Shown piece after piece: positions 29,900-64,000 of a stretch of DNA of 64,000 nt. Made by a program: the position numbers and the translations under genes. Numbering within the stretch: position 1 is the first letter of the stretch; each line of letters begins with the position of its first letter. Under the pieces are notes generated by a model. It was not told where the DNA came from. It did no database searches and saw only the letters and a list, made by a program, of their open reading frames with translations. Source of the DNA: Eledone cirrhosa (lineage: Eukaryota); NCBI GenBank assembly GCA_964016885.1, contig OZ024742.1:85808001-85872000 (forward strand), read 5' to 3'.

Positions 29900-31500
29900 T
29901 ATCTGTTTGTGTTAATTGAGTGGTCAAGATTCAAAGGGGGATGCAAGCAAGAGGCAAATTCCATGGCAGTAGTAGGGTTGTAAAATAAATTCTATTATTG
30001 GAATATGGTTTTAAGGAGTGTGTGTGTATATATAGTTTGAGGGTTATTATATAACAATACACACATACTTGTGTGTGTGTTTCAGCCCTGTCTGTCACAG
30101 GTTCCTTTAGCAATACACATATGTGTGTGTTGGGGGAGGGGGTTAAGCCTGTCTCTCACAGTTCCCTTTGTGGTGGGAAATTAAATAAACATTTTTTTAA
30201 AAATTCAGAAAATTCTCAAACACTAAAAATTCCTAGAATTTAATTTTTGTTTATAATAAAAACAGAGCAGAGTAACAGTAGTGGCTCTCAAACAGGAAAC
30301 TTCTCGAAACAGTAATTTTGTCTCTCTCATTTTGTGGTGTGTGTGTGGAGTGGGGATGGGGGCTAATGGGGTGATTACATATTTAGTTTTGGATTAAGTT
30401 TGTTATTACAAAGTTTTTCCTTATTTATTCTTTGTTGGTGAATCGGGGAACATGTAACGGGGGAAGATTTTAAGTTGTGTAGAGTCATTCCTGCACAATC
30501 TGCAATGTGGCTACTTAAGGGGGCTTTCCTTGCGTTTACGTACAGCCGCCGCATGTGAATACATAGAACATATTCTCCGAGTTGCAAGTGAAGTTGTTTT
30601 TCACTTGAAAGTTTGGCCATCTTTAAACCTGAATTCATGTTCTTCAGTTAAGTATTGACATGTTCGACAGTTTGTTCTTCCGCATCTTGTTACCGTAAGG
30701 TTGGAGATAGGCTTCTGTATCTTTGATGTGAATAGGACGAAATGTTTGGAGTCCGTGGGTTTATAAAAGATGTATGTTTCTATTTTTGCCATCCATTTTT
30801 AGAATGTCTCTCATTCCATTGTGAATTGTAAATTTGAAAAGAGTGAGTGGATGCATGTCTTCCTGCCATAGTATGAAACACTCGTGTAGGTATCTCTTCC
30901 AATTCTTTTTGAGACGTGTAAGGAAAGAGTCTTCGAATAATAGAAGGAATTGGTTGTAGATTTGTTGTTCGTGGAATCCCATGACTAAGCTGTCGTATGT
31001 GGGAGCTATCTTTGTGTCCATTTCAGTCCCTGAGATGTGTCGGTATGCTGAGTCATGGAAAGTAAATAAATCATTTTTTAAGATAAATCGGAGTCCATCA
31101 ATAATGAAGTTTTTGTTGATGCGTGTCGGTATTTCATATTGGTGAGTTTCTAGCCAATACCGGATTGCTGTTATTCCATAGTTATAGGGTATGTTAGTGT
31201 AGAGGTTTACTACGTTAAAGGAGACAAGAGTAGGGTTTTCACTTATTGTTTTGGGTAGGTGGTTCAGCATATCAAGGTCATCTCGTATGTAGCTCTGTAT
31301 ATGTTTTGATGGAATTTTTAAGTTTTAGGAACTTGTTGAATTTTGAAGAAAATATATTTTTCTATTTCCCGGCACAAAGGGACCTGTGACAGACAGGCTG
31401 AAAAGCACCCACTCACACACCCCACCCACCCCACACACATGTGAGACGTGACAGACAGGCTGAGAAGAAAACATACACACACATGTGTGTATTGTTATAT
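29900..31500 (-). mobile_element. Degenerate 5'-truncated Neptune-like Penelope element with inverted 3'-UTR segment
   Basis: ORF pieces 30761-31270 (LVSFNVVNLYTNIP, WKRYLHECF), 30601-30792 (CGRTNCRTC) and 30375-30638 align with the 48038-50388 protein, with an internal deletion. 31325-31500 is a diverged inverted copy of ~30040-30235. Confidence 0.85.
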
Positions 31501-31574: not shown

Positions 31575-32247
31575 ATATCTCGAAGATTGCATTTCGTTTC
31601 GTTTGTGGGCACCGCCAAAATGCGATCTCCCTGAAATAATATTTATATTAATCTCCCGGACCTAGCAATTAATTAGTTAATTCAATTAGACAATTCTATT
31701 GACTAATTAATTGCTTAAGTCAATTCTATTGACTAATTAATTGCTTAAGTTTATTTAAAACAATCCGGTCGAGAGCTTACTTTGAGTTGTGCAGTTTTTT
31801 GCAATTTTTGCAATACATTTACACAATTTGAATGCATCCGCCAAAAACCAGGGTTACCTCTCTTACAGGGTAAACACGTAGGGTAGTCACTCCACCATGA
31901 CTACTGCATTGGAACCCGCTGGCCGGCTGAGAAGAAAATACCTGTTGACGAAATGGCTGCCTTGTTCGATCTTTATACCAAAAGCTTACAACGAAAGCAG
32001 GCAGTATAATTGAATTAAAAGTCACAGAAACATTCCACTGGATTCTACCAACAATTTCCAGGAGGTCCAGGTAAATTCTTTTTTTAACCTGTTTAGCTTA
32101 CTTCGTTTATTTGTTGGCTCCGGTGGCTGATGGCTTCACGACAACTCTTTTCATTTTGTCTGGCGTCTATAACGTATGTTAATTGCGCTGGTCTGCTTTT
32201 AGTCCATTGAGCGCTTGCCGGGTATCTCGAAGATTGCGTTTTGTTTA
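31575..32247. mobile_element. ~650-bp non-autonomous element with terminal redundancy, between (TA)n
   Basis: ATCTCGAAGATTGC at ~31577 and ~32224. The internal part is homologous to 36250-36575. Confidence 0.65.
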
Positions 32248-32264
32248 TATATATATATATATAT

Positions 32265-35200
32265 ATTAGAAATTGGAATAAATGCTCTGAAATAGCGATA
32301 TATATGTGAATATAGACATAGAATATTCGAAAATATTCTGTATGTTTATAATAAACATTTTGAAGACCTAATCGCTATAGAATAGAATACGTCACGTATT
32401 ACAATTAGATTCTCGATAAAAGCAAGGGAAGTAATCTACGCGTTTCATTCTTGTTAGAAATCATCAGGACTACATATCCAGTGCTTTTATCGAGAATGAC
32501 ACAGCTAGAGACTTATAGAATACTTAGCTGTGTACAGGAACTGGTTTGAAAGAGCGGTTGCCGGTCCGGCAGAAATTAGAAATTGGAATAAATGCTCTGA
32601 AATAGCGATATATATGTGAATATAGACATAGAATATTCGAAAATATTCTGTATGTTTATAATAAACATTTTGAAGACCTAATCGCTATAGAATAGAATAC
32701 GTCACGTATTACAATTAGATTCTCGATAAAAGCAAGGGAAGTAATCTACGCGTTTCATTCTTGTTAGAAATCATCAGGACTACATATCCAGTGCTTTTAT
32801 CGAGAATGACACAGCTAGAGACTTATAGAATACTTAGCTGTGTACAGGAACTGGTTTGAAAGAGCGGTTGCCGGTCCGGCAGAAATTAGAAATTGGAATA
32901 AATGCTCTGAAATAGCGATATATATGTGAATATAGACATAGAATATTCGAAAATATTCTGTATGTTTATAATAAACATTTTGAAGACCTAATCGCTATAG
33001 AATAGAATACGTCACGTATTACAATTAGATTCTCGATAAAAGCAAGGGAAGTAATCTACGCGTTTCATTCTTGTTAGAGATCATCAGGACTACATATCCA
33101 GTGCTTTTATCGAGAATGACACAGCTAGAGACTTATAGAATACTTAGCTGTGTACAGGAACTGGTTTGAAAGAGCGGTTGCCGGTCCGGCAGAAATTAGA
33201 AATTGGAATAAATGCTCTGAAATAGCGATATATATGTGAATATAGACATAGAATATTCGAAAATATTCTGTATGTTTATAATAAACATTTTGAAGACCTA
33301 ATCGCTATAGAATAGAATACGTCACGTATTACAATTAGATTCTCGATAAAAGCAAGGGAAGTAATCTACGCGTTTCATTCTTGTTAGAAATCATCAGGAC
33401 TACATATCCAGTGCTTTTATCGAGAATGACACAGCTAGAGACTTATAGAATACTTAGCTGTGTACAGGAACTGGTTTGAAAGAGCGGTTGCCGGTCCGGC
33501 AGAAATTAGAAATTGGAATAAATGCTCTGAAATAGCGATATATATGTGAATATAGACATAGAATATTCGAAAATATTCTGTATGTTTATAATAAACATTT
33601 TGAAGACCTAATCGCTATAGAATAGAATACGTCACGTATTACAATTAGATTCTCGATAAAAGCAAGGGAAGTAATCTACGCGTTTCATTCTTGTTAGAAA
33701 TCATCAGGACTACATATCCAGTGCTTTTATCGAGAATGACACAGCTAGAGACTTATAGAATACTTAGCTGTGTACAGGAACTGGTTTGAAAGAGCGGTTG
33801 CCGGTCCGGCAGAAATTAGAAATTGGAATAAATGCTCTGAAATAGCGATATATATGTGAATATAGACATAGAATATTCGAAAATATTCTGTATGTTTATA
33901 ATAAACATTTTGAAGACCTAATCGCTATAGAATAGAATACGTCACGTATTACAATTAGATTCTCGATAAAAGCAAGGGAAGTAATCTACGCGTTTCATTC
34001 TTGTTAGAAATCATCAGGACTACATATCCAGTGCTTTTATCGAGAATGACACAGCTAGAGACTTATAGAATACTTAGCTGTGTACAGGAACTGGTTTGAA
34101 AGAGCGGTTGCCGGTCCGGCAGAAATTAGAAATTGGAATAAATGCTCTGAAATAGCGATATATATGTGAATATAGACATAGAATATTCGAAAATATTCTG
34201 TATGTTTATAATAAACATTTTGAAGACCTAATCGCTATAGAATAGAATACGTCACGTATTACAATTAGATTCTCGATAAAAGCAAGGGAAGTAATCTACG
34301 CGTTTCATTCTTGTTAGAAATCATCAGGACTACATATCCAGTGCTTTTATCGAGAATGACACAGCTAGAGACTTATAGAATACTTAGCTGTGTACAGGAA
34401 CTGGTTTGAAAGAGCGGTTGCCGGTCCGGCAGAAATTAGAAATTGGAATAAATGCTCTGAAATAGCGATATATATGTGAATATAGACATAGAATATTCGA
34501 AAATATTCTGTATGTTTATAATAAACATTTTGAAGACCTAATCGCTATAGAATAGAATACGTCACGTATTACAATTAGATTCTCGATAAAAGCAAGGGAA
34601 GTAATCTACGCGTTTCATTCTTGTTAGAGATCATCAGGACTACATATCCAGTGCTTTTATCGAGAATGACACAGCTAGAGACTTATAGAATACTTAGCTG
34701 TGTACAGGAACTGGTTTGAAAGAGCGGTTGCCGGTCCGGCAGAAATTAGAAATTGGAATAAATGCTCTGAAATAGCGATATATATGTGAATATAGACATA
34801 GAATATTCGAAAATATTCTGTATGTTTATAATAAACATTTTGAAGACCTAATCGCTATAGAATAGAATACGTCACGTATTACAATTAGATTCTCGATAAA
34901 AGCAAGGGAAGTAATCTACGCGTTTCATTCTTGTTAGAAATCATCAGGACTACATATCCAGTGCTTTTATCGAGAATGACACAGCTAGAGACTTATAGAA
35001 TACTTAGCTGTGTACAGGAACTGGTTTGAAAGAGCGGTTGCCGGTCCGGCAGAAATTAGAAATTGGAATAAATGCTCTGAAATAGCGATATATATGTGAA
35101 TATAGACATAGAATATTCGAAAATATTCTGTATGTTTATAATAAACATTTTGAAGACCTAATCGCTATAGAATAGAATACGTCACGTATTACAATTAGAT

Positions 35201-35668
35201 TCTCGATAAAAGCAAGGGAAGTAATCTACGCGTTTCATTCTTGTTAGAAATCATCAGGACTACATATCCAGTGCTTTTATCGAGAATGACACAGCTAGAG
35301 ACTTATAGAATACTTAGCTGTGTACAGGAACTGGTTTGAAAGAGCGGTTGCCGGTCCGGCAGAAATTAGAAATTGGAATAAATGCTCTGAAATAGCGATA
35401 TATATGTGAATATAGACATAGAATATTCGAAAATATTCTGTATGTTTATAATAAACATTTTGAAGACCTAATCGCTATAGAATAGAATACGTCACGTATT
35501 ACAATTAGATTCTCGATAAAAGCAAGGGAAGTAATCTACGCGTTTCATTCTTGTTAGAAATCATCAGGACTACATATCCAGTGCTTTTATCGAGAATGAC
35601 ACAGCTAGAGACTTATAGAATACTTAGCTGTGTACAGGAACTGGTTTGAAAGAGCGGTTGCCGGTCCG
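32265..35668 (-). repeat. Tandem array of 11 x 310-bp hammerhead-containing units (retrozyme-like concatemer)
   Basis: AATTGGAATA recurs every 310 bp from 32271 to 35371. Copies look identical except for A>G at 33079 and 34629. (TA)n on the left. Confidence 0.97.
32409..32497 (-). ncRNA. Type I hammerhead ribozyme (copy 1 of 11; repeats every 310 bp to 35509-35597)
   Basis: Minus strand GUAGUC-CUGAUGA-U-UUCU(AACA)AGAA-U-GAAA-CGCG-UA/GAUUAC. Stem I is GUAGUC:GAUUAC, extended by a 16-bp helix (ATTCTCGATAAAAGCA:TGCTTTTATCGAGAAT). Stem III is the palindrome ACGCGU. Predicted cut between 32437 and 32436. Confidence 0.88.
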
Positions 35669-35784
35669 TTACTTCCCTTGCTTTTATCGAGAATCTAATT
35701 GTAATACGTGACGTATTCTATTCTATAGCGATTAGGTCTTCAAAATGTTTATTATAAACATACAGAATATTTTCGAATATTCTA

Positions 35785-35793
<9 letters not shown>
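35669..35793 (+). repeat. Inverted partial copy of the 310-bp unit terminating the array
   Basis: TTACTTCCCTTGCTTTTATCGAGAATC...TTCTATGTCTATA is the exact reverse complement of ~32310-32434, then runs into (TA)n. Confidence 0.95.
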
Positions 35794-35847
<54 letters not shown>

Positions 35848-35848
35848 G

Positions 35849-35932
<84 letters not shown>

Positions 35933-35934
35933 AA

Positions 35935-36571
35935 TATAGACATAGGTTATAAAAGCCAAACAAAGTGAGATGGCGGTCAAGAAGCCATCAACCACCTAAG
36001 CCCAAAAAAACGAGGCAAGCGAAACAGGTTAAACAAAATAATTGAAATATTTACCCGGACCCTCGAAAAGATGGTATAATCCAGTCCATAGTTTCTGCGA
36101 CACCTAAATCAATTATACTGGTTGCTTAAAATAATAAGCTTTTGGTATAATGATTGAACAAGGCTGTCACTTCGCCAACAGGTATTCTGTTCTACGCCAG
36201 CATATAGAATCAGGCAGTGGTATGTATGTACTACATACCACTTGTTCAATCATTATAGCAAAAGCTTATTATTTTAAGCAAGCAGTATAATTGATTTAGG
36301 TGTCGCAGAAACTATTGACTGGATTATACCATCTTTTCGAGGGTCCGGGTAAATATTTCAATTATTTTGTTTAACCTGTTTGGCTTGTCTCGTCTTTTTG
36401 GCTTAGGTGGTTGATGGCTTCTTGACTGCCAACTCAGTTTGTTTGGTTTTTATAACCTATGTTTATTACTCTGGCCTTTATCTGCTCCATGGAGCGCTTG
36501 CCAGCATAACTGGGATATTACACTTCGCTTTGTTTTCGACCACAGCCGGAATCCGAATCTCGCTGAAATCA

Positions 36572-47474: not shown

Positions 47475-47505
<31 letters not shown>

Positions 47506-47512
<7 letters not shown>

Positions 47513-50500
47513 TGGTAAACGGAATAGAAAATGCTGACAAATTGTTCACAGTTGAAAAATGGTTTAATTAGGAATAAAAGAGTATTAGTAATTGTATGGG
47601 TTAGTATTCAGTTGTGGTTTTAAGTTTTTAAGATCTTACCGGTTGCGCATTTCTAAATGCTTTTCAAAAATAATTTTGAGATAGAGTGTCCGTGTTGGTT
47701 GCTTTGATCTGATTAGTTTTGGGAATTCTACCTGTTTTTATGTTAAAAAAGTGGCTCCAGCGTTACTTTGGTGTTGCAAAAATTCTTGTGGTCAAAACAA
47801 TTTTGATTGGTCGGTAGAGGTCATGTGAATGTAAAAAATTATTTTGCGCCAAGACAGTTTTTATGTTAAATACAACCAACAACGTAAGCCACTTATAACA
47901 CCACAATACAACATGGCACAGAGAAACACACACCCATGCTCGCAGTACAGTAACACCCCATTCAATCTACAACCACCAACCCGAACCACATTTTACAACA
48001 ACAAGAAATATAACAAACACAGGAGACCACTTAACATTTGCAGACAACCCCTCTACCCCAACCATTTTTTAGACACAGCACACAGATACAGGCAAACAAA
48101 ATAACACAAGACAGGGAGGAGAAACCGATAGTAATAAAAATTATCAATCTTACTAGTGCAGAACCAACACCCAACCTTATCAACTTACTCTCCAAAGGTC
48201 TTAAATTCACACCGACCCCACTACGTCCTAACTACTATGAAATGAAGGAAGACATCACAGACTTCTGTAGAAAGTTACGACTTAGTGAACAACTATTCAA
48301 CCAGTACAATGAGGATGAATCATTAGCCAGAAATAGAAGCAATTACACCCCTTCAAAAGGTAGAAATAAAATCCTGGACGAATTCTGTGAACACATCACA
48401 AACTTCCCTTACCAACACTTGCACAGACAAAAACACAAGCCAAACCTCAACAAGAAAGAATGGGAAGAATTAAATAGATTGAAAACCGACAGAACCATTA
48501 AAATTAAAGAGACTGATAAAGGGGGTACAGTAGTCCTAATGGAGACAGAATTCTATATCAACTTAGCGCTCTCTACTTTGGAAAACGAAACATACTACGA
48601 ACAGGCTGAACACTACAATCAACAGAAAATTATGAGAAAAATAAAAACTCTAATCAACCAATACAAAGAAGGACTCACTAACAAGGAATTCAGCTTCATC
48701 ACAGACTTCACAAGTAAATACAGCCTCTTCTACGGTATCCCTAAAGTACATAAAAGCGAATTAATAAGTAAGGCATGCAAGGAAGCCACAGACATAGTCA
48801 TCAATGTCCCCTCACCCAATGATCTCAAATTAAGATCTATAATAGCAGGCCCTGCTTGCGAAACGCACCGTCTTAGCAACTTCATTGATACCCTTCTCAA
48901 ACCCTTCCTCAAACACATCAAAAGCTATATAAGGGACGACCTAGATATGCTCAATCACCTCCCTAATATGCCACTTTCTGAACAAACCCTACTAGTGACG
49001 TTCGATGTAGTCAATCTATACTCCAACATCCCCCACAACCTAGGAATAGAAGCTATCCAATTCTGGCTGGATAATTTCCACAATGAACTCCCACAACGCA
49101 TGAAAAAAAATTCGTGATAGAGGGACTCAAATTTTTCTTGGAGAACAATTACTTCGTTTTCAATAACAAACCCTACAGGCAGAAATCTGGGACCGCTATG
49201 GGAACGAAAACAGCCCCCACTTATGCCAACCTAGTCATGGGATACCTGGAAATCACCCTCTACACTAAAGTCCTAAACAAATTTGGAAACACCGTCCACT
49301 TACACATTGAAAGGAACTGGAAGCGATATCTAGATGACTGCTTCATCCTTTGGCCCGAAAACATCGAAAAACTTAAAGAAGTTCACACCCTTATAAATGG
49401 GATCAACACGAATATTAACTTCACGATGGAATACAGCCATCAACAACTTCCCTTCCTCGACATCCTCATTAAGATCCATAACAAAAAAATAGAAACAGAC
49501 ATATACTACAAGCCCACAGACTCCAAGCAATATATCCCCTTCAACTCTTGCCACACTAGACACGTTAAAATTAATATTCCCTACAACTTAGCCAAGAGAA
49601 TCTGTACTATAGTCTCCAATAAAAACATCTGCTACTTACGGCTACAAGAACTAAAGGACACACTCATAGGCAGGAACTACCCTGCATCACTAATTGACAA
49701 TGGAATCCAACGTGCCCTAAAACTCAGTTCCCAGGACCTTAGACACCCTAAAGTAAATCAACCGAAACTAAAAGCTCTTCCATACATCTCCACACACAAC
49801 CCTCTCAACAATGAGGCCTTTGACACCATCCTCCAGAACATCCTTGTGCTGAAAAAGGACCATAGAATGAACCAAATTCTACGAACACACGATATCATAA
49901 AGAGCAAAAGACAATCCAAGTCAATGAAAAACATCTTAACACATGCCAAAGTACTGCCAACCACAACAACGAAACCCACAGTAAAAAAATGCGATAGACC
50001 CAACTGTGGCATTTGCATCAACCTAATAGAGGGTTCGGAATTCTATTTCAAAGATGGACAACGTTTTATAGTAAAACACAATTTCACATGTGCATCGGAA
50101 AATCTAATATATGTATTAACTTGCTTAGGTTGTCGAGAACAATACATAGGCCAGACCAAACACAGCCCCCGCCAACGCATGACTGTCCATAGATCCCAAA
50201 TTAAAATACGGGAATACAGGAAAATACCACTGAGTGAACACATTGATACCTGTGCCGCCCAAAATCATCCCAAGTTTAGAATCTTTCCCCTCTACAAATT
50301 TAAAGATAATGCCACCCACACCCAGCGCATCAGCAAGGAATCTTACTTCATTAACAAATACGGACCCCGTCTAAACACTTCTCCCTAAGAGGAACCCACA
50401 ACAGACACACGTTAACATTCATACCTACATCAGCACACATCTCCACCCACATATAAACACAATGACATACGTAAACACACATGCTCTATGGTGCAACACA

Positions 50501-50516
50501 GAAAAATATATGTGTA

Positions 50517-50570
<54 letters not shown>

Positions 50571-51150
50571 ATATATGTATGTGTATATATATGTAGTGAA
50601 TATCATTTCACACCTTTTATTGTTAAGATTTTTGATGTTCTATTAAGAGAACCGATTTTACTGAAAAAATCGAATAATGTACACCATTTTACCAGGGGGG
50701 AAAGATACTGTACTGCGAGCATGGGTGTGTGTTTCTCTGTGCCATGTTGTATTGTGGTGTTATAAGTGGCTTACGTTGTTGGTTGTATTTAACATAAAAA
50801 CTGTCTTGGCGCAAAATAATTTTTTACATTCACATGACCTCTACCGACCAATCAAAATTGTTTTGACCACAAGAATTTTTGCAACACCAAAGTAACGCTG
50901 GAGCCACTTTTTTAACATAAAAACAGGTAGAATTCCCAAAACTAATCAGATCAGAGCAAACAACACGGACACTCTATCTCAAAATTATTTTTGAAAAGCA
51001 TTTAGAAATGCGCAACCGGTAAAAACTTAAAAACTTAAAACCACAACTGAATACTAACCCATACAATCACTAATACTCTTTTATTCCTAATTAAACCATT
51101 TTTCAACTGTGAACAATTTATCAGCATTTTCTATTCCGTTTACCAATATA
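47506..51150 (+). mobile_element. Neptune-like Penelope-like retroelement with ~445-bp inverted pLTR segment
   Basis: 47506-47952 and 50706-51150 are near-identical inverted repeats; the left end abuts (TA)n and the right ends in TATATA. RT-GIY-YIG ORF between them. Confidence 0.92.
48038..50388 (+). CDS. PLE reverse transcriptase + GIY-YIG endonuclease (one frameshift at A8, 49103-49110; probably 5'-truncated)
   Basis: LLSKGLKFTP, ETDKGG, FYGIPKVHK, LVTFDVVNLYSNIP, GTAMG, WKRYLDDCF, PFLD, CDRPNCGIC linker, NLIYVLTCLGCREQYIGQT, RMTVH. Confidence 0.92.
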
Positions 51151-51933
51151 TAATAACTTGTGTGTTACACCTCTATTCTTTTAACTATATATATATATAT
51201 ATATATGTTCAAATCATGTTATTGCCGACAATCGTTTCTTCCAAAATTTCGTTTGGTATCCGCGGGGCACTAGCAAAGTTTGGACATATAATTAACTTCC
51301 TATTCAACTGAACAATCATATAGGCACATGGATATTAATGATGTCATCAACAGTTTCGTATTTCCAGAGTTGAATGGATGTGACAGAGATTACAAGAGAA
51401 TTGTATAATAATTAAAGCAGTATAGAGAGTGCAAATGCGCTAGGCATATACAGGACACTTAGGTAGGAAACAAGCAATGGTACTAGGCATATATAATTAC
51501 TGCATGGCAAAGGTATCACATAAAATAACATAGGTTTACAAGCATATCAAGCAGGCAAAGCTGTTTGTGTATTAAAATTATGCGTTTATGGTGGATGTAG
51601 TGTGATAATTGTTGCTGTAATGTTCAAATGTGCATGTGTTGAGAGTATTATTATTATTGTTTTCTTTTCCATTACATTGGTTATATTTTATTTTGTGAAT
51701 GTTTATAATAAGATACAGCTATGGATTGTATATTGGTCCTATTATACTGTTATCCCGGGTTCGAGTTGTTCTGATTTGAACGTAGTTGCGATTATAGTGT
51801 TATTTATATCCCTGCTCTGTAAAACATCTGATGTTATTTTTCATTGAGCTATTTTTCTTACTGGTAGCAAGATAGTAATAAATTACTGACCATTCCTGTT
51901 TATAGTTGTATATAGTGTATATATAATTATAAA

Positions 51934-52001
<68 letters not shown>

Positions 52002-52148
52002 ACGTAGTTTAGAAAGCCACAACAATGCAGAGGGAAATCTCGAGGTAGGAAGTGAATGATAGATAGGAGAAATAGGATAAAGTGAAAATTGAAAGAGACA
52101 AAGATGAAAACAAAACAAAGGTAGAAGGGTTACCGTAGTGGAGATTTA

Positions 52149-52187
52149 ATCCCAATATTTCGGGCTCACGCCCATCAACGGGGGAAA
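52149..52187 (-). ncRNA. Degenerate minimal hammerhead in the PLE 3' region
   Basis: Minus strand TTCCC-CCGTTGA-T-GGGC(GTGA)GCCC-GAAA-TA-TT-GGGA. Two mismatches to CUGAUGA; same strand as the ORF. Confidence 0.5.
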
Positions 52188-52793
52188 GTTCCAAAAGGGG
52201 GGGAACAGGCTAAGCGGAGAAAGTAGTGATGTCGTTAAAACAGGAATGCCGTTATGGGGAGAAAAATTATTTAAAATTTAAATGAGGGAAAGAATGCGCG
52301 TGCGCGTGATAGGCTGTGGCAAAAGCTACTGACCAAATGGGTTAAATCAAGAGGGTGCGCTAGCGTGTGAAAGCCGTAAAATATGTGTGTGTAAATATAT
52401 ATGTGTGTGTAAATGTGTGTGTATATGTGTAAGTGTGTATATGTGTGAGTGTGTGTGTGTGTGTGAAAGATAGTGGGCTGTAGAAGCTGGAAATCAAAGG
52501 GTGTGAAAGGTGGTAGGTTGTAAAACATGTGTGCGTGTATAAATATAGATGTGTGTGTGTAAGCGTATGGGTATACATGTGTGTGTAACTGTGTGTGTAT
52601 ATGTGTGAGTGCGTGTGTGTGTGAAAGATAGTGGGCTGTAGAAGCTGGAAATCAAAGGGTGTGAAAGGTGGTAGGTTGTAAAAACATGTGTGCGTGTATA
52701 AATATAGATGTGTGTGTGTATGCGTATGGGTATGCATATACGTGCGTGTGTGTGAAAATAGCAGGGCGTAAGGGCTGTGAATGGTCACTATGG

Positions 52794-54473
52794 TTAAGTT
52801 AGCCATGTCAGCTCATTTCTCTCAGCCCGGTTGTTAAGTGGGGGTCTGAGGTTCTTAATAACAAGTGCTTCCTTTATCCTTAAGGATCCGATGCTGCGTT
52901 CAGTCGCTAGGACTGTGACCAAGGGTCTACCCTGTGGGTTTCCGCATTTAAGGATGTGTTTACGGAAGGAAGATGCGTTGGTGTTGATATGTTCCTTGAT
53001 ACGAACATGCAGGGGTCGGATGGTGCTACCTATGTAAAACTTGTTACATTTATCGCATTGAATCTTATATACGACATAGGTGCGTAGGCAATCTGCCCCC
53101 CGTATCGGACAGTTGCTGAGGGAACACGTCCCATCTGACTCGTCGGGTTTGTTGGAGAGGCATCTTCGCAGCGAAGGTCCTGTGTGAGCCAAATGTATGT
53201 CAAGTACCTCCGTCCGTATGGCCCTGCGGATGGCGTTCGTGGTATATTCACTCAGGTGGGGGATTTTAAAGAAGCACCTGCTTTTAGTTAAGTTTCTAGT
53301 GGGAGTCTGTCTATTGGGTCTGGGGTCTCTAATTCCGTTAATCAGTCGCTTGGGATATCCATTAGACCTGAGTAGATTACGGAATTGCGTGGTATGGGTG
53401 AGACCACCCATCGGGTCGCTGCATCTGTTAGTGATCCGTGTCAGTTCATTTAGGACATAGCCTCTCTTAGCGTTGTTGGGGAGGGCTGAGTTGTAAAGCC
53501 CAAATAAGTCCTTGCACGCTGCTTTGCGGTAGAAGGTGGTGTTTATGTCTCCTTCTTCCGAGATGTTGATACGGAAGTCGAGGAGGGCGAGTGACCCGTC
53601 TTCTCCTGGGTGTTCGATGGTGAAATCGACGTGATGGTCAGTATCGTTGAAGATTTGGTGAATTTCATTCGCCATCTCCCGGGAAGAAGTAAGTATCAGG
53701 ATGTCATCAACGTATCTGGAGTAGAAGGCGACGGCGTTGGGTTGGCAGGTATTGAGTGCCTTGCGTTCCAGGTGGTCCATGTACGAGATCGCAAGTATGC
53801 CGGACAGACGAGAGCCCATAGGTAGCCCAGAGATTTGTTTGTACGTGTGGCCGAGGAAATTGAAGAGTGCATTATCCACAACGAAGGAGAGGAGTTGGTG
53901 GATGTCCGTGTGTGTGAGTCCGAAGCAGTGTAAGTTAGATGCTCGGACTCGTTCGGTCAACACGTCGACGGCTGGGGATGCTTGTACGGAGGTATAAAGG
54001 GCGACCACATCAAGACTGAAGGCATAACCGTTGTCCTTTCTGGTGTTGGGCGCCAGATGGTGTAGTCGCTCCAAGACCTCCTTTGAGCTGCAGACGTGGG
54101 CTGGTAGTGTGTGTAGAATAGGTTTCAGTAGTGTGAAGAGCAGCCACGATATTTTGTAGAGTGGGCCCTCCACGCTAGAGACAATGGGCCTGATTTTCAA
54201 ATCGGGTCCTTGTTTATGTGTTTTAACCAGGTGGTAGAAGGTGGGTAGTTTGCTGTTTCGAGTCATTATGTTGTTTTTTACCTTCTTTGGCAGTTTTCGT
54301 TGGACACAGATGTTAGTCCATATGGTGTTAATGCCTTCCTCGATTAGAGTCGAGGAGGTCCCTGTGACTTTCGAGTAGAGGCTGTGGTCGTTAAGATGTT
54401 GGAGAGCTAAGTTGTTGTAGGTCTCTCTCGAGATGACACAGAATTCTTTCCCCTTGTCAGAGGGAAGGTACAC
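52794..54473 (-). CDS. PLE reverse transcriptase + GIY-YIG endonuclease (559-aa open segment; N-terminus frameshifted)
   Basis: PSDKG, FYHLVKTHK, RPIVS, FSLDVVALYTSV, GLPMGS, YSRYVDDIL, VVYKIQCDKCNKFYIGST, RIKEH, KEALVI...LN. Confidence 0.92.
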   Translation of the reverse strand: MYLPSDKGKEFCVISRETYNNLALQHLNDHSLYSKVTGTSSTLIEEGINTIWTNICVQRKLPKKVKNNIMTRNSKLPTFYHLVKTHKQGPDLKIRPIVSSVEGPLYKISWLLFTLLKPILHTLPAHVCSSKEVLERLHHLAPNTRKDNGYAFSLDVVALYTSVQASPAVDVLTERVRASNLHCFGLTHTDIHQLLSFVVDNALFNFLGHTYKQISGLPMGSRLSGILAISYMDHLERKALNTCQPNAVAFYSRYVDDILILTSSREMANEIHQIFNDTDHHVDFTIEHPGEDGSLALLDFRINISEEGDINTTFYRKAACKDLFGLYNSALPNNAKRGYVLNELTRITNRCSDPMGGLTHTTQFRNLLRSNGYPKRLINGIRDPRPNRQTPTRNLTKSRCFFKIPHLSEYTTNAIRRAIRTEVLDIHLAHTGPSLRRCLSNKPDESDGTCSLSNCPIRGADCLRTYVVYKIQCDKCNKFYIGSTIRPLHVRIKEHINTNASSFRKHILKCGNPQGRPLVTVLATERSIGSLRIKEALVIKNLRPPLNNRAERNELTWLT

Positions 54474-54959
54474 AAGGTTCCTGGATCTTAGGTTGGTGAG
54501 AGTATTAAATTGTGCATTGGTGAGGTTGCGTTTATTGTGTGTGTGTGTGTGTGTTGGGAAAGGATGTTAGAGATAGAATGTTTCAACCTGAGTAGTTTAG
54601 TGTCAAGTTCGTGGTTGGTGGGTGGGGGTGGAGTGGGTTGTCGAGGTGGTACGTGGGGAGTGCGGGGTGGGTTGTGGGGTTGTAATCGATCTCGGTGTTG
54701 TTTTGGATGGCGGTTAGCCATTTCAGTTGATATGCTGTCCGACAGAAGTTGGTTTCGATGTCGAGTTTCAGTCTATCATCGAGACGCTGTGTAATGATGA
54801 ACTCGGGTCCGAGGCGCAGAATTTCGAGTTCGTCGTTGGTGAGGGTACCGGTTAGGTATATATATATTAAAGAGTTAAACAAGGTTCAATGAATACACCA
54901 AAGAATGAGTTTTACAATTGATTGGAAGCACTGAACAGTAATAAGGTTTTCCAGAGTTA

Positions 54960-57644: not shown

Positions 57645-57701
<57 letters not shown>

Positions 57702-58261
57702 ATACTTTGGGACTGTCATGTTGCCAATAAGAAACACACGCACCAGTTGCTTTCACTTCAATTTATTTTAATAAATTTATAAATTTGGATATTTATAAAT
57801 TTCCAGTTGGTTGGTTGGTTCTACAACCAGATGATTGTTTATATATTGTCAAAGTTTTTTCGTCACACATTCTGTGACTTCTTCAGTTACTGTGAATTAT
57901 TTTCTTTGTTTTGTTTGTGCCTCTCCTTTGTTCTATCTTACACCATCAAAAACAAGATGGCGTAGGACAAAACAAAGGAGAGGCACACAAAAACAAAGAA
58001 AATAATCCCCAGTCACTGAAGAGGTCACGTAATGTTTGACGAAAGAACTTTGACAATATATAAACAATCAACTGGTTGTGTAACCCACCAACCAACTGGA
58101 AATTTATAAATTCCTAAATTTATAAATTTATTTTAATAAATTGAAGTGAAACAATTGGTGCGTGTGTGTCTTATTCGCAACATGACCCTGCCACAGTATA
58201 ACAATATCGGTTTCAAAACACGTTTTCAGATAAAGAATCTTACTAAACAAATTCAAAAACG

Positions 58262-61085: not shown

Positions 61086-64000
61086 TTTCATTTATTAGCC
61101 ACAAGGGCCGACATGTAGATGACAATACAAAGACAGGGACAGTGGGGGTTTACAATTAGGTCAAGTAAAAGTGCACAATGGCAAGACTAATTTAACTATG
61201 AAGATATAAAAATATAAAATAAACTATGCATAAATATAATAAAATAAATTCCTCGATAGGGGGTGGACGACCCTGAGGTGACTCAAGTACCCCACCAATC
61301 CTGAACCACCCTGCGCTTCTAGGGCACCCAGGGAGAGCACCCCTCTCCTCAAGTTAGCTAGCCTATAGGCGCATGGTCAGAGTAGGCCCATTCACACGAG
61401 CCATTCTCGCCACATCCATCCACCTTCTAGCAAATATACTGGGGGGCAGCACTTCTCTCTCCAACCTCACCTTCCTTTCCAGGTGAAACTTGAAGAAGTT
61501 GATGAGTGATTGGCCGAAGAGAAATAGTCTGTCTTCAGTCCTTTTAACCTGGTCCACCATATAACCTCTTTCGCAACTGCCACAAGACAGAGGAAAATTG
61601 CCTGCTCTTCCTGACCTCAGGAAGGCGGCGGGTCGATCTTCACTATGGACTCGGCCGATAGCCGGATTCGTTCCACACGCGACAGTAGCTGTTCGACATA
61701 ACTCCACAATTTAGTAATGCACGGACATTGAACAAGAGTGCGTGCAGAACGGTTTCGTCGTTCTGTGCGCATCTTGGGCAGGTCCGTCTGACAGCAATTC
61801 CGTGCCTGTAGAGTTTATCCCGAACCGGCAGTGCCCCCCGGTAGCATTGCCAAGCGAGGGATTTCTGGAAATTGTCCATCGTCCCCGGCTGAAAACCTCA
61901 GGTACAGACTGGTCAGTTTGACTTCGTCGAGGCCCAAAGCTTCTCCGAGTGCGTCGTCGCACTTGCCCACCACTAATCCTCTATAGAACTCTAGAGTGGA
62001 AGTTGCACTGATCGCATTTCCCACTTGGTAGAGGGCAGTGAATGCCTGGCAACATTCCAAGTGCCAGTCACCCAGTCTCTGTCTCTTCTTGACCCAGTAC
62101 TGCAGCTCAGTCAAAGAAATGGGCTGCGGAAAGACCCGTCTGATAAACGGCGACCACACTTGTTCACCGTTGAGGCAGAATATCTGTAGATGTCGCAGCC
62201 TCAACGCATGTCTGCGCATCATTAGCCACAGCATGCCCAGCCTTCCGCGTAGAGCGTGCTTACCAACGGAACTTGTCCCCTCACAAGAATTTGAAGAGGA
62301 GCCATTCCAACTTGACGAGGCGCGGACGACGGCAAGGCACGACGATCAGGTGGTAGTAGATGGCGGACCCGATGTACGTTTCGCCACCTCCGAGCGACCT
62401 TTCAGTGATAGCTTCCTCCCAGCCCATTCTGGCGTGAGACTGGCAACTCTGCTCGTTACCTCGTCCCAATAATTTTCCACCTGGAGGTCTGGTCCAAACC
62501 AAACCCCGATTACTTTACCGGTCCTTCCGTCCAGCGCCCCAAAACGCTATTGGACGGCATGGGCTTGCCTCTCCAGGTTCCGAGCTGCAAGCCCACCGAC
62601 TTTTCCGGGTTAAGTTTAGCTCCTGTCAACCTTTCATATTCCTTCAATAAGGTACCAATCACCTCGATTTATGAGGTGTTTGACACCATCACGGTGATGT
62701 CGTCCGCATAAGCCGACCCCGCCTTTCCCCGTCCCGTTACGAGCGGGATGCCCTGCAAGTAAAGGCTCGAGAGTCAATACGTACAGAAGCGAGGAGAGAG
62801 GGCACCCTTGACGGACCGATTGGGAGAGCCGAAAAGGTTCCGAGATGTGGCCATTGACTTTCACCACCGAGCGTGTGCCGCTGTGCATTGCAGCGATCCA
62901 ACTTCTAAAGACAGGGCCGAAGCCAGCTGCTTTGAGGACAAACTCCAGATACCGATGGACGACCCTATCGAATGCTTTCGGTTGATCTAAATTGATCAGT
63001 GCCCCACCGAAGCCAGGTTTACACCCTACCCTCTCTATGATGTATCGCATGAGGTGGAGATTGTCGTTTATAGACCTCGCTGGGATTGCGCAAGTTTGCG
63101 CCTCCCCGACCAAATCCTCGACGACAAGCGACAATCTCTTTGCTAGCACGTTGGCTAAAATCTTAAACTCTGTGTTGAGCAGAGTTATGGGCCTGAAGTT
63201 GTCTAATGTATCCCTCTTGTTCTCGTCTTTCCTTATCAGCGTCGCCACTCCCCTGTTCACAGAACTGGGAATACTCCCATCTGCTCCAGTTGCAGTAGAG
63301 TGCTTCGAGGAGTTCGGAGAACAAGTCTGGCATATTTACGTAAAGCTCGTAGGGCAGGCCATCCAAACCGGGTGACTTGCGTCTGATGCAGCCGACAAGG
63401 GCGTTCTGAATTTAGGCTGAAGTAATCGGCCTTTCACAGAGCTCAGCTTCGAGCGTCGAGATACGCGGCAAGCCGTCAAGGTAGGGACTGAAATCCGCTA
63501 CTGTCTCTGACTCGCCACTCTCCACAAAACACCGAGCAAAGTGCTGGCGAAAGACCTCACACATGCGCTTGGAATCGCTTATCTCGTGTCCGTCTCGGTT
63601 CACCAAAGACCTAATTGTGGTTTTATTACCACGCTGTGCCTCCGCCACGCGGACCCATTGAACAGCTCTGGTTCCCTCGTTTCTCAGCGCACGCGCCTTA
63701 GCTCTGACAATGCAACCTTCGTGTTTCGCATTGAAGAAATTGTCTAATGCCATTCTCGCCGCTAGCACGACAGTTGCAATGCCACTACAAATAGCCTCGC
63801 CTAACTTATCTACCAGCTCCCCCTCCTTTCTATTTTTCTCTAACGCTAGTTCTTTGCTGAACTCTATCGAAGTTACTCTAATCTGTCTTTTGAGAGCCCC
63901 CCCCACCATCTGTTGTTGATGATCCCCCATGTCAACTTTTGCTTAACTAAATTGTTGACTCGGTCCCTGTAGACTTTACGTGCCGGAAATGACAGGTTCA
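61086..64000 (-). mobile_element. Tx1/L1-clade LINE, ORF2 disrupted by frameshifts; continues beyond the window
   Basis: DGLPYELY, NFRPITLLNTEFKILA, LINLDQPKAFDRV, VRQGCPLS, AYADD (~62700-62714), LAWQCYRGALPV...CPRC...ETVLH (zf-RVT). Stop at 61363; AATAAA just before the (ATT)n tail. Confidence 0.92.

Follow-up and report, generated by a model that had tools for sequence, protein, structure and literature searches.

How did a tandem array of non-coding, hammerhead-bearing repeats come to lie within a (TA)n tract of the Eledone cirrhosa genome, and what kind of enzyme placed it there? The array sits in the 64,000-nt stretch of DNA analyzed here (the window), in which 10.98 head-to-tail units of 310 nt fill positions 32265–35668 with the RNA sense on the minus strand. 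Nine of the 11 units do not differ from one another, and one substitution is shared by the other two, units 3 and 8 (at 33079 and 34629), which bears out the 11 near-identical units of the original prediction. The four hairpins named in that prediction are all present in the sequence, its (TA)n surroundings are found on both sides of the insertion (left (TA)n tract, 32246–32264; right (TA)n/(CA)n tract, 35794–35938), and the array was correctly described as lacking an ORF, as no frame of 110 aa or longer overlaps it in an ORF scan of the array region. However, the whole of 32265–35793 had been taken as tandem, and the last 125 nt (35669–35793) turn out to be an inverted second arm on the plus strand. 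When the monomer is numbered from the first base past the predicted cleavage, the long arm (32265–35668, minus strand) has its outer end at monomer 172 and its inner end at 179, and the short arm contains monomer 3–127, its outer end being the 'short' site. The two arms meet head to head at 35668/35669, where the junction is blunt and microhomology is absent at this locus. Monomer 128–172 (32265–32309, minus strand), which is terminal on the long arm only, is referred to as the 'tail', a label taken from work on Penelope-like elements (PLEs; PMC11167929). The flanks at 31980–32245 and 35930–36540 are themselves arms of an older repeat, with direct and inverted matches of ~75%; this repeat also terminates in (TA)n, and the array thus lies within a nest of such insertions.

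Every unit carries the full CUGAUGA, GAAA and GUA core on the minus strand (11/11), as had been claimed. The type I hammerhead of unit 1 occupies 32431–32473 and recurs in 11 copies with a 310-nt period; the predicted cleavage falls at 32437/32436 and then every 310 nt to 35537/35536. Stems I and II had both been described as paired, which stands for stem I (6 bp) but only in part for stem II, in which 3 pairs sit above a basal U-U. Helix III is just 2 bp around a 2-nt loop within the palindrome ACGCGU; pairing of this palindrome across adjacent copies is possible (computed duplex energy of −9.5 kcal/mol), and as modeled, the helix III of each hammerhead likely needs a dimer. A short palindromic helix is typical of metazoan hammerheads that act as dimers (PMC4209133), and the axolotl HHR_Amex2, whose stem II has the same basal U-U, is reported to be better as a dimer (PMC7229834). 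The Rfam scan proposed as a check on the ribozyme returned nothing at the gathering score; the best match is a weak Hammerhead_HH9 (E 0.052), with 19.2 bits against a cut-off of 52. One predicted RNA monomer, from cleavage site to cleavage site, spans 310 nt (32437–32746, minus strand) with a circular minimum free energy of −67.8 kcal/mol, and the predicted circular fold is more stable than those of shuffled sequences (z = −4.8, 100 shuffles).

The non-LTR retrozymes of coral, mussel and axolotl are tandem non-coding units of 150–450 nt with a type I hammerhead, for which circles have been shown (Cervera and de la Pena 2020, PMC7229834). The array resembles metazoan non-LTR retrozymes in its tandem non-coding units, type I hammerhead, low GC and self-paired circle fold, and it displays the features by which the class is recognized: 310-nt units, a hammerhead in 11/11 of them, a dispersed family and a stable predicted circle fold. 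The retrozyme-like assignment of the original prediction is therefore supported, and the class is a known one. Plant LTR retrozymes, with LTRs, a type III hammerhead and a 4-bp duplication, are not matched, as the array has a type I hammerhead and no LTR layout. The main text of PMC7229834 does not mention inverted arms, fixed ends or microsatellite targets; circles are demonstrated there, whereas the present array is known from genome sequence alone. Two-armed retrozyme insertions, the pairing of long with short ends described below and a cephalopod retrozyme were not found in the full-text literature, a search that covered few subscription papers and had Repbase, Dfam and supplements outside its scope. 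The array belongs to a class already known; its PLE-type insertion anatomy, which is highly regular, has not been described in the literature searched.

An exact 30-mer of the ribozyme core has 8,317 copies in the 3.0-Gb genome (reversed control, 0), and one long-end junction pattern has 1,301 matches genome-wide, which is a lower bound on the number of insertions. The retrozyme family is very young, because single-unit differences amount to only 80 in 135,328 nt (5.9e-4 per base). At least 1,301 insertions, low divergence and (TA)n targets support the prediction of a recent, dispersed hammerhead concatemer made by reverse transcription, and the presence of more than 1,300 loci contradicts the alternative of a single locus.

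Three sister families, B (L107), C (L161 and L238–L245) and D (L149), accompany this family (A) in the genome. Family B has a 316-nt unit, 3,330 matches, a U3-A8 core variant and a 4-bp helix III; it aligns with family A over the full length (score 170; shuffles reach at most 45), and its ends fall at homologous positions in 20 of the 27 places scored, which were chosen in a way that favored multi-hit places. Families C and D are older and, in the loci seen, have the two-armed layout of family A, mostly with ~1 unit per arm. Because the highest conservation between families surrounds the two end sites, the best-conserved block across families A, B and C (monomer 141–196; 32551–32606, minus strand), which encloses the long-end site, may be a recognition element of the reverse transcriptase. 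The four related families appear to form a lineage of their own. The ribozyme core covaries from C3-G8 to U3-A8 (11 versus 7 sequences among 18 units of families A, B and C), and all four stem II pairs are altered on both sides across these families; being drawn from three families, this covariation represents few independent events. RNAalifold recovered stem II and the end-region helices from the three-family alignment and did not recover stems I and III, both misplaced by the aligner. The invariant catalytic bases are hit by 0 of 23 fixed variants (~1 chance hit is expected), several of which keep or add a pair, and this sparing is weak evidence.

The most informative feature of the insertion is the inverted second arm together with the two fixed outer ends. 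To characterize this layout, we scored 12 insertions picked by the ribozyme core alone (the first places listed) and 40 loci picked by the long end (the first new ones among 100 listed of 1,301). Two divergent arms, with the RNA 3′ ends outward and with one short and one long end, are present in 9 of the 12 core-picked insertions; two others are single-armed and one is not scorable. Long and short ends are paired in 36 of the 40 long-end loci, and two long ends are paired in none (0/40). The rest comprise one single-armed insertion and three loci that run past the fetched region, one of these with an inverted arm. An inverted second arm is present in 37/40 long-end loci and 9/12 core-picked insertions, and three insertions in all among the 12 + 40 scored are single-armed. 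The short ends lie at monomer 118–139 (mode 130, with some blurring from an internal AT tract) and the long ends at 157–172 (mode 165, in a set largely selected on that end), with the long site ~26–45 nt beyond the short site. The insertions are mostly in (TA)n, which is contacted by 11 of the 12 core-picked ones; the exception (L037) has a 12–14 nt AT-rich target duplication. Dispersed arrays with varying starts in (TA)n had been anticipated, of which the dispersal and the (TA)n targets are found, but not the variation in start, as the outer ends are fixed and only the inner ends vary.

Across 42 loci, the 84 inner ends are uniformly distributed around the unit (KS p 0.28), with 3 observed near the cleavage site against 5.4 expected. 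Most arms (62/84) are longer than two units, the longest exceeding 19 units, and the lengths of paired arms are uncorrelated (rho 0.19, p 0.24). Inserts of 1–18 nt occur at 14 of the 38 central junctions scored, and microhomology of at least 2 nt is found in 16 of the 24 insert-free junctions, versus 18.5% by chance. The central junction of L040 has caught 272 nt of unrelated sequence between the arms (1999–2270), for which no match was found among the retrieved loci. An inverted junction with microhomology is also produced by L1 twin priming, in which two cDNAs are primed on one RNA. The L1 cDNAs copy adjacent, non-overlapping pieces of a linear RNA, whereas the arms of the array have fixed starting sites separated by ~35 nt and traverse the unit repeatedly.

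The haplotypes of the two arms are concordant in 32 of 33 loci in which both arms have at least 400 nt (16 haplotypes), whereas shuffling of the arms gives a mean of 4.4 concordant loci and a maximum of 12 in 10,000 shuffles. Eight loci carry variants that are absent from the other sampled loci yet fixed in every unit of both arms; these private variants were judged against 48 sampled loci and may exist elsewhere. L215 is the sole discordant locus of the 33, and six other loci, including the window array, have a variant in only 2–3 units, which argues against a pure monomer circle. For the variant of units 3 and 8, a multimeric circle of constant size was considered and rejected, as no consistent period appears in other loci. 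The data favor a circle over a linear multimer without proving it, and the earlier proposal that the insertion was made through a circular or multimeric RNA is supported to that extent.

PLEs carry a 30–40 bp tail on one end and an inverted truncated copy and have a bias for (TA)n, traits whose origin is described as unresolved (PMC8557442). The array shows this signature, with a tail on one end, an inverted 5′-truncated copy and an AT-rich or (TA)n target. The tail, the inverted 5′-truncated copy, the (TA)n bias and a type I hammerhead with a palindromic helix III are reported for Penelope/Poseidon, Neptune, Naiad and Hydra PLEs (PMC8557442, PMC11167929) and are also found in the array. In vitro, a PLE protein, modeled as a dimer, cuts and extends both strands and initiates at two neighboring sites inside the RNA, between which the tail lies (PMC11167929). 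Unlike endonuclease-bearing PLEs, the array is without an ORF, has pure multi-unit arms and lacks pLTR homology to any coding PLE examined; as an ORF with reverse transcriptase plus GIY-YIG is absent, the retrozyme is not an autonomous PLE. Vertebrate pLTR-derived retrozymes likewise consist of hammerhead tandem units of ~300 nt and are found together with PLEs. The preprint on them proposes local tandem expansion and mentions neither tail nor orientation in its text (bioRxiv 10.64898/2026.07.22.740005), whereas the concatemers described here appear to be made at insertion. The same preprint reports for Xenopus that 24 of 57 retrozyme families have a match among known TEs, with PLEs making up 21 of the 22 (bioRxiv 10.64898/2026.07.22.740005). 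According to a 2020 review, animal retrozyme repeats contain no motif that points to the mobilizer (PMC7761336).

The window contains two young PLE families. A Neptune-like PLE at ~47,500–51,180 (ORF 48035–50388, plus strand) has a reverse transcriptase, a CxxC linker and a GIY-YIG domain; it is frameshifted here and belongs to a young family in which many copies are intact (784 aa). This PLE has its own inverted short arm, with long and short ends and a tail of ~38 nt, and no canonical hammerhead was found in its family. Copies of the second young family (51,996–54,900; ORF 52794–54566, minus strand) are 97–99% identical, and the element adjoins (TA)n and has a tail of ~40 nt. The best named relative of a window PLE protein is from Octopus bimaculoides (53%), and the SINE-like sequence flanking insertions is presumably octopus-like. 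The window also contains a decayed fragment of a Neptune-like PLE at 30,400–31,324 (minus strand), some 1 kb away from the array, together with a fragment of a LINE reverse transcriptase at 62,634–63,942 (minus strand).

Elsewhere in the genome, a Hydra-like coding PLE with 9,826 core matches and a tail of ~70–75 nt (L163–L167, L141, L159 and L162) combines long and short ends in 10/10 divergent pairs, 9 of them cleanly and one in a composite locus, and it has a canonical hammerhead whose 28-nt core is near-identical to that of the retrozyme. No pLTR homology to the retrozyme end region beyond shuffles or (TA)n was found among the ~9 coding PLE families sampled, Naiad not among them. An autonomous partner was found neither in these ~9 families nor at 13 GIY-YIG loci out of 150 listed. 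Several candidates were rejected: an end similarity above shuffles at L248 is (TA)n, and a weak match at L257 is another hammerhead repeat beside the PLE. The 11 listed of 13 matches to an exclusion pattern are variant retrozyme units, and a profile search among the retrieved loci yielded only further retrozyme families.

The array is probably a young non-autonomous non-LTR retrozyme, whose circular RNA serves a PLE enzyme as template for reverse transcription started at both ends of a single break. The arrays would be transcribed, the hammerheads would cut as dimers, and the products would be ligated to 310-nt circles. A PLE protein with reverse transcriptase and GIY-YIG activities, probably a dimer, would nick both strands of an AT-rich target, and each target 3′ end would prime a cDNA at one of two neighboring internal start sites of the same circle. 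Both enzymes would travel round the circle for 0.2 to more than 19 turns, and the two cDNA 3′ ends would then be joined, by microhomology or short inserts, at variable inner ends. Each cDNA would be the template for the second strand of the other, which would make the inverted layout the normal product. This reading, with a single circle and two starts, is supported by the pairing of long and short ends, the haplotype concordance, the uniform inner ends and the microhomology, and also by the recurrence of the long-and-short rule in family B, the Hydra-like PLE and the Neptune-like PLE, by the private variants fixed in both arms, by the ribozyme covariation, and by the PLE traits and two-site initiation in vitro given above. 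Against it are the lack of an autonomous partner in the PLE families examined, the use of uncleaved RNA as the main template by an Anolis PLE in vitro (PMC11167929), the failure of 8 of 9 Xenopus retrozyme dimers to cleave (bioRxiv 10.64898/2026.07.22.740005), the inserts at 14/38 junctions and the three single-armed insertions. That retrozymes are mobilized by PLEs and that circles are reverse-transcribed into multiple units have both been put forward before as hypotheses (PMC7229834, PMC7761336, PMC4209133, bioRxiv 10.64898/2026.07.22.740005). On balance, we incline slightly towards a broader claim, namely that each insertion is a frozen record of the work of one PLE dimer, whose two subunits, one per start site, copied the same RNA circle from opposite sides of a break. 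Such copying would be a general mechanism for the PLE tail and inverted copy, and the array would be the first direct genomic evidence of rolling-circle reverse transcription of an animal retrozyme, as its own lineage without helper pLTR homology. If this is true, copying by the dimer would supply second-strand synthesis without a separate step.

The same PLE machinery with two-sided priming might instead have used an uncleaved linear multimer from a homogeneous array, circles being rare or irrelevant. An Anolis PLE mainly used uncleaved RNA in vitro (PMC11167929), a linear multimer would likewise yield one haplotype per insertion, and the weak helix III may slow cleavage. Variants in 2–3 units (window units 3 and 8; L203, L215, L230 and L040) also fit a heterogeneous multimer. 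Nevertheless, we consider this template unlikely: variants fixed in all units of both arms would need a one-unit bottleneck followed by re-expansion, arms of more than 19 units would shrink in every round without a circle, and the inner ends are not in excess at the cleavage site.

A short PLE-type insertion might also have grown into a tandem later, by unequal crossover or slippage, with gene conversion homogenizing the arms. A satellite route has been proposed for vertebrates (10.64898/2026.07.22.740005), and the few shared non-fixed variants seen here suggest some later exchange. However, in very young insertions each arm independently has multiple units and the two lengths are uncorrelated, the older families C and D mostly have ~1 unit per arm, which is the opposite of growth with age, and the parent pLTR was not found among the PLE families sampled; we regard later growth as very improbable. 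Inverted repeats can come from chimeric long reads, and the two arms could in principle reflect an assembly artefact of fold-back reads, or the array could be a plain satellite with a chance motif. This explanation is barely conceivable for asymmetric arms with two fixed, differing ends and unique flanks at more than 1,300 loci, and the rule recurs in diverged families in which the ribozyme covaries. The artefact that the original prediction had named as its own possible undoing is contradicted by the asymmetric fixed ends, the more than 1,300 loci and the covariation.

Of the 24 sequencing runs listed, 20 contain 0.76–1.00 of the words of the unit, at low depth; these 20 are filed under 17 coded organisms in 16 studies, and no RNA run containing the unit was found among the runs listed. 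Of the runs X1, X3, X10 and X21, three, each of a different coded organism, contain one closed 340-nt contig (310 + 30) with a depth of 10–34 and 0–1 differences. This contig fits a circle or a collapsed tandem equally, the runs being of unrecorded type. In a Hi-C run of another organism whose runs contain the unit, 0 of 12.8 million reads fall on the stretch, which is no test by itself. We read the presence in several organisms as trace carry-over of an abundant sequence, unproven either way, and the 340-nt contigs are set aside as evidence for circles on the same reading. That the circle also moves between species, with the unit almost unchanged in runs labeled as 17 organisms, is hardly credible.

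The literature names as open questions both the mobilization of animal retrozymes and the way in which PLEs come by their tail and inverted copy (PMC7229834, PMC7761336, PMC8557442). With more than 1,000 near-identical insertions that carry informative variants, the model can be tested purely from sequence; for assays of a PLE reverse transcriptase, the 310-nt RNA, on which two start sites are mapped, offers a ready minimal substrate. The insertion rule can be checked at once in the retrozymes of coral, mussel, axolotl and Xenopus.

Further hammerhead repeats, unrelated in sequence, are present at L135 (2100–3025), L047 (70–330) and L257; one of them has a tandem unit of ~470 nt, and another has a palindromic ACUAGU helix III. 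Within the window, an older inverted pair at 57698–58205, with hammerhead-like cores at 57886 (minus strand) and 58016 (plus strand), lies between two (TA)n tracts and is another two-armed element.
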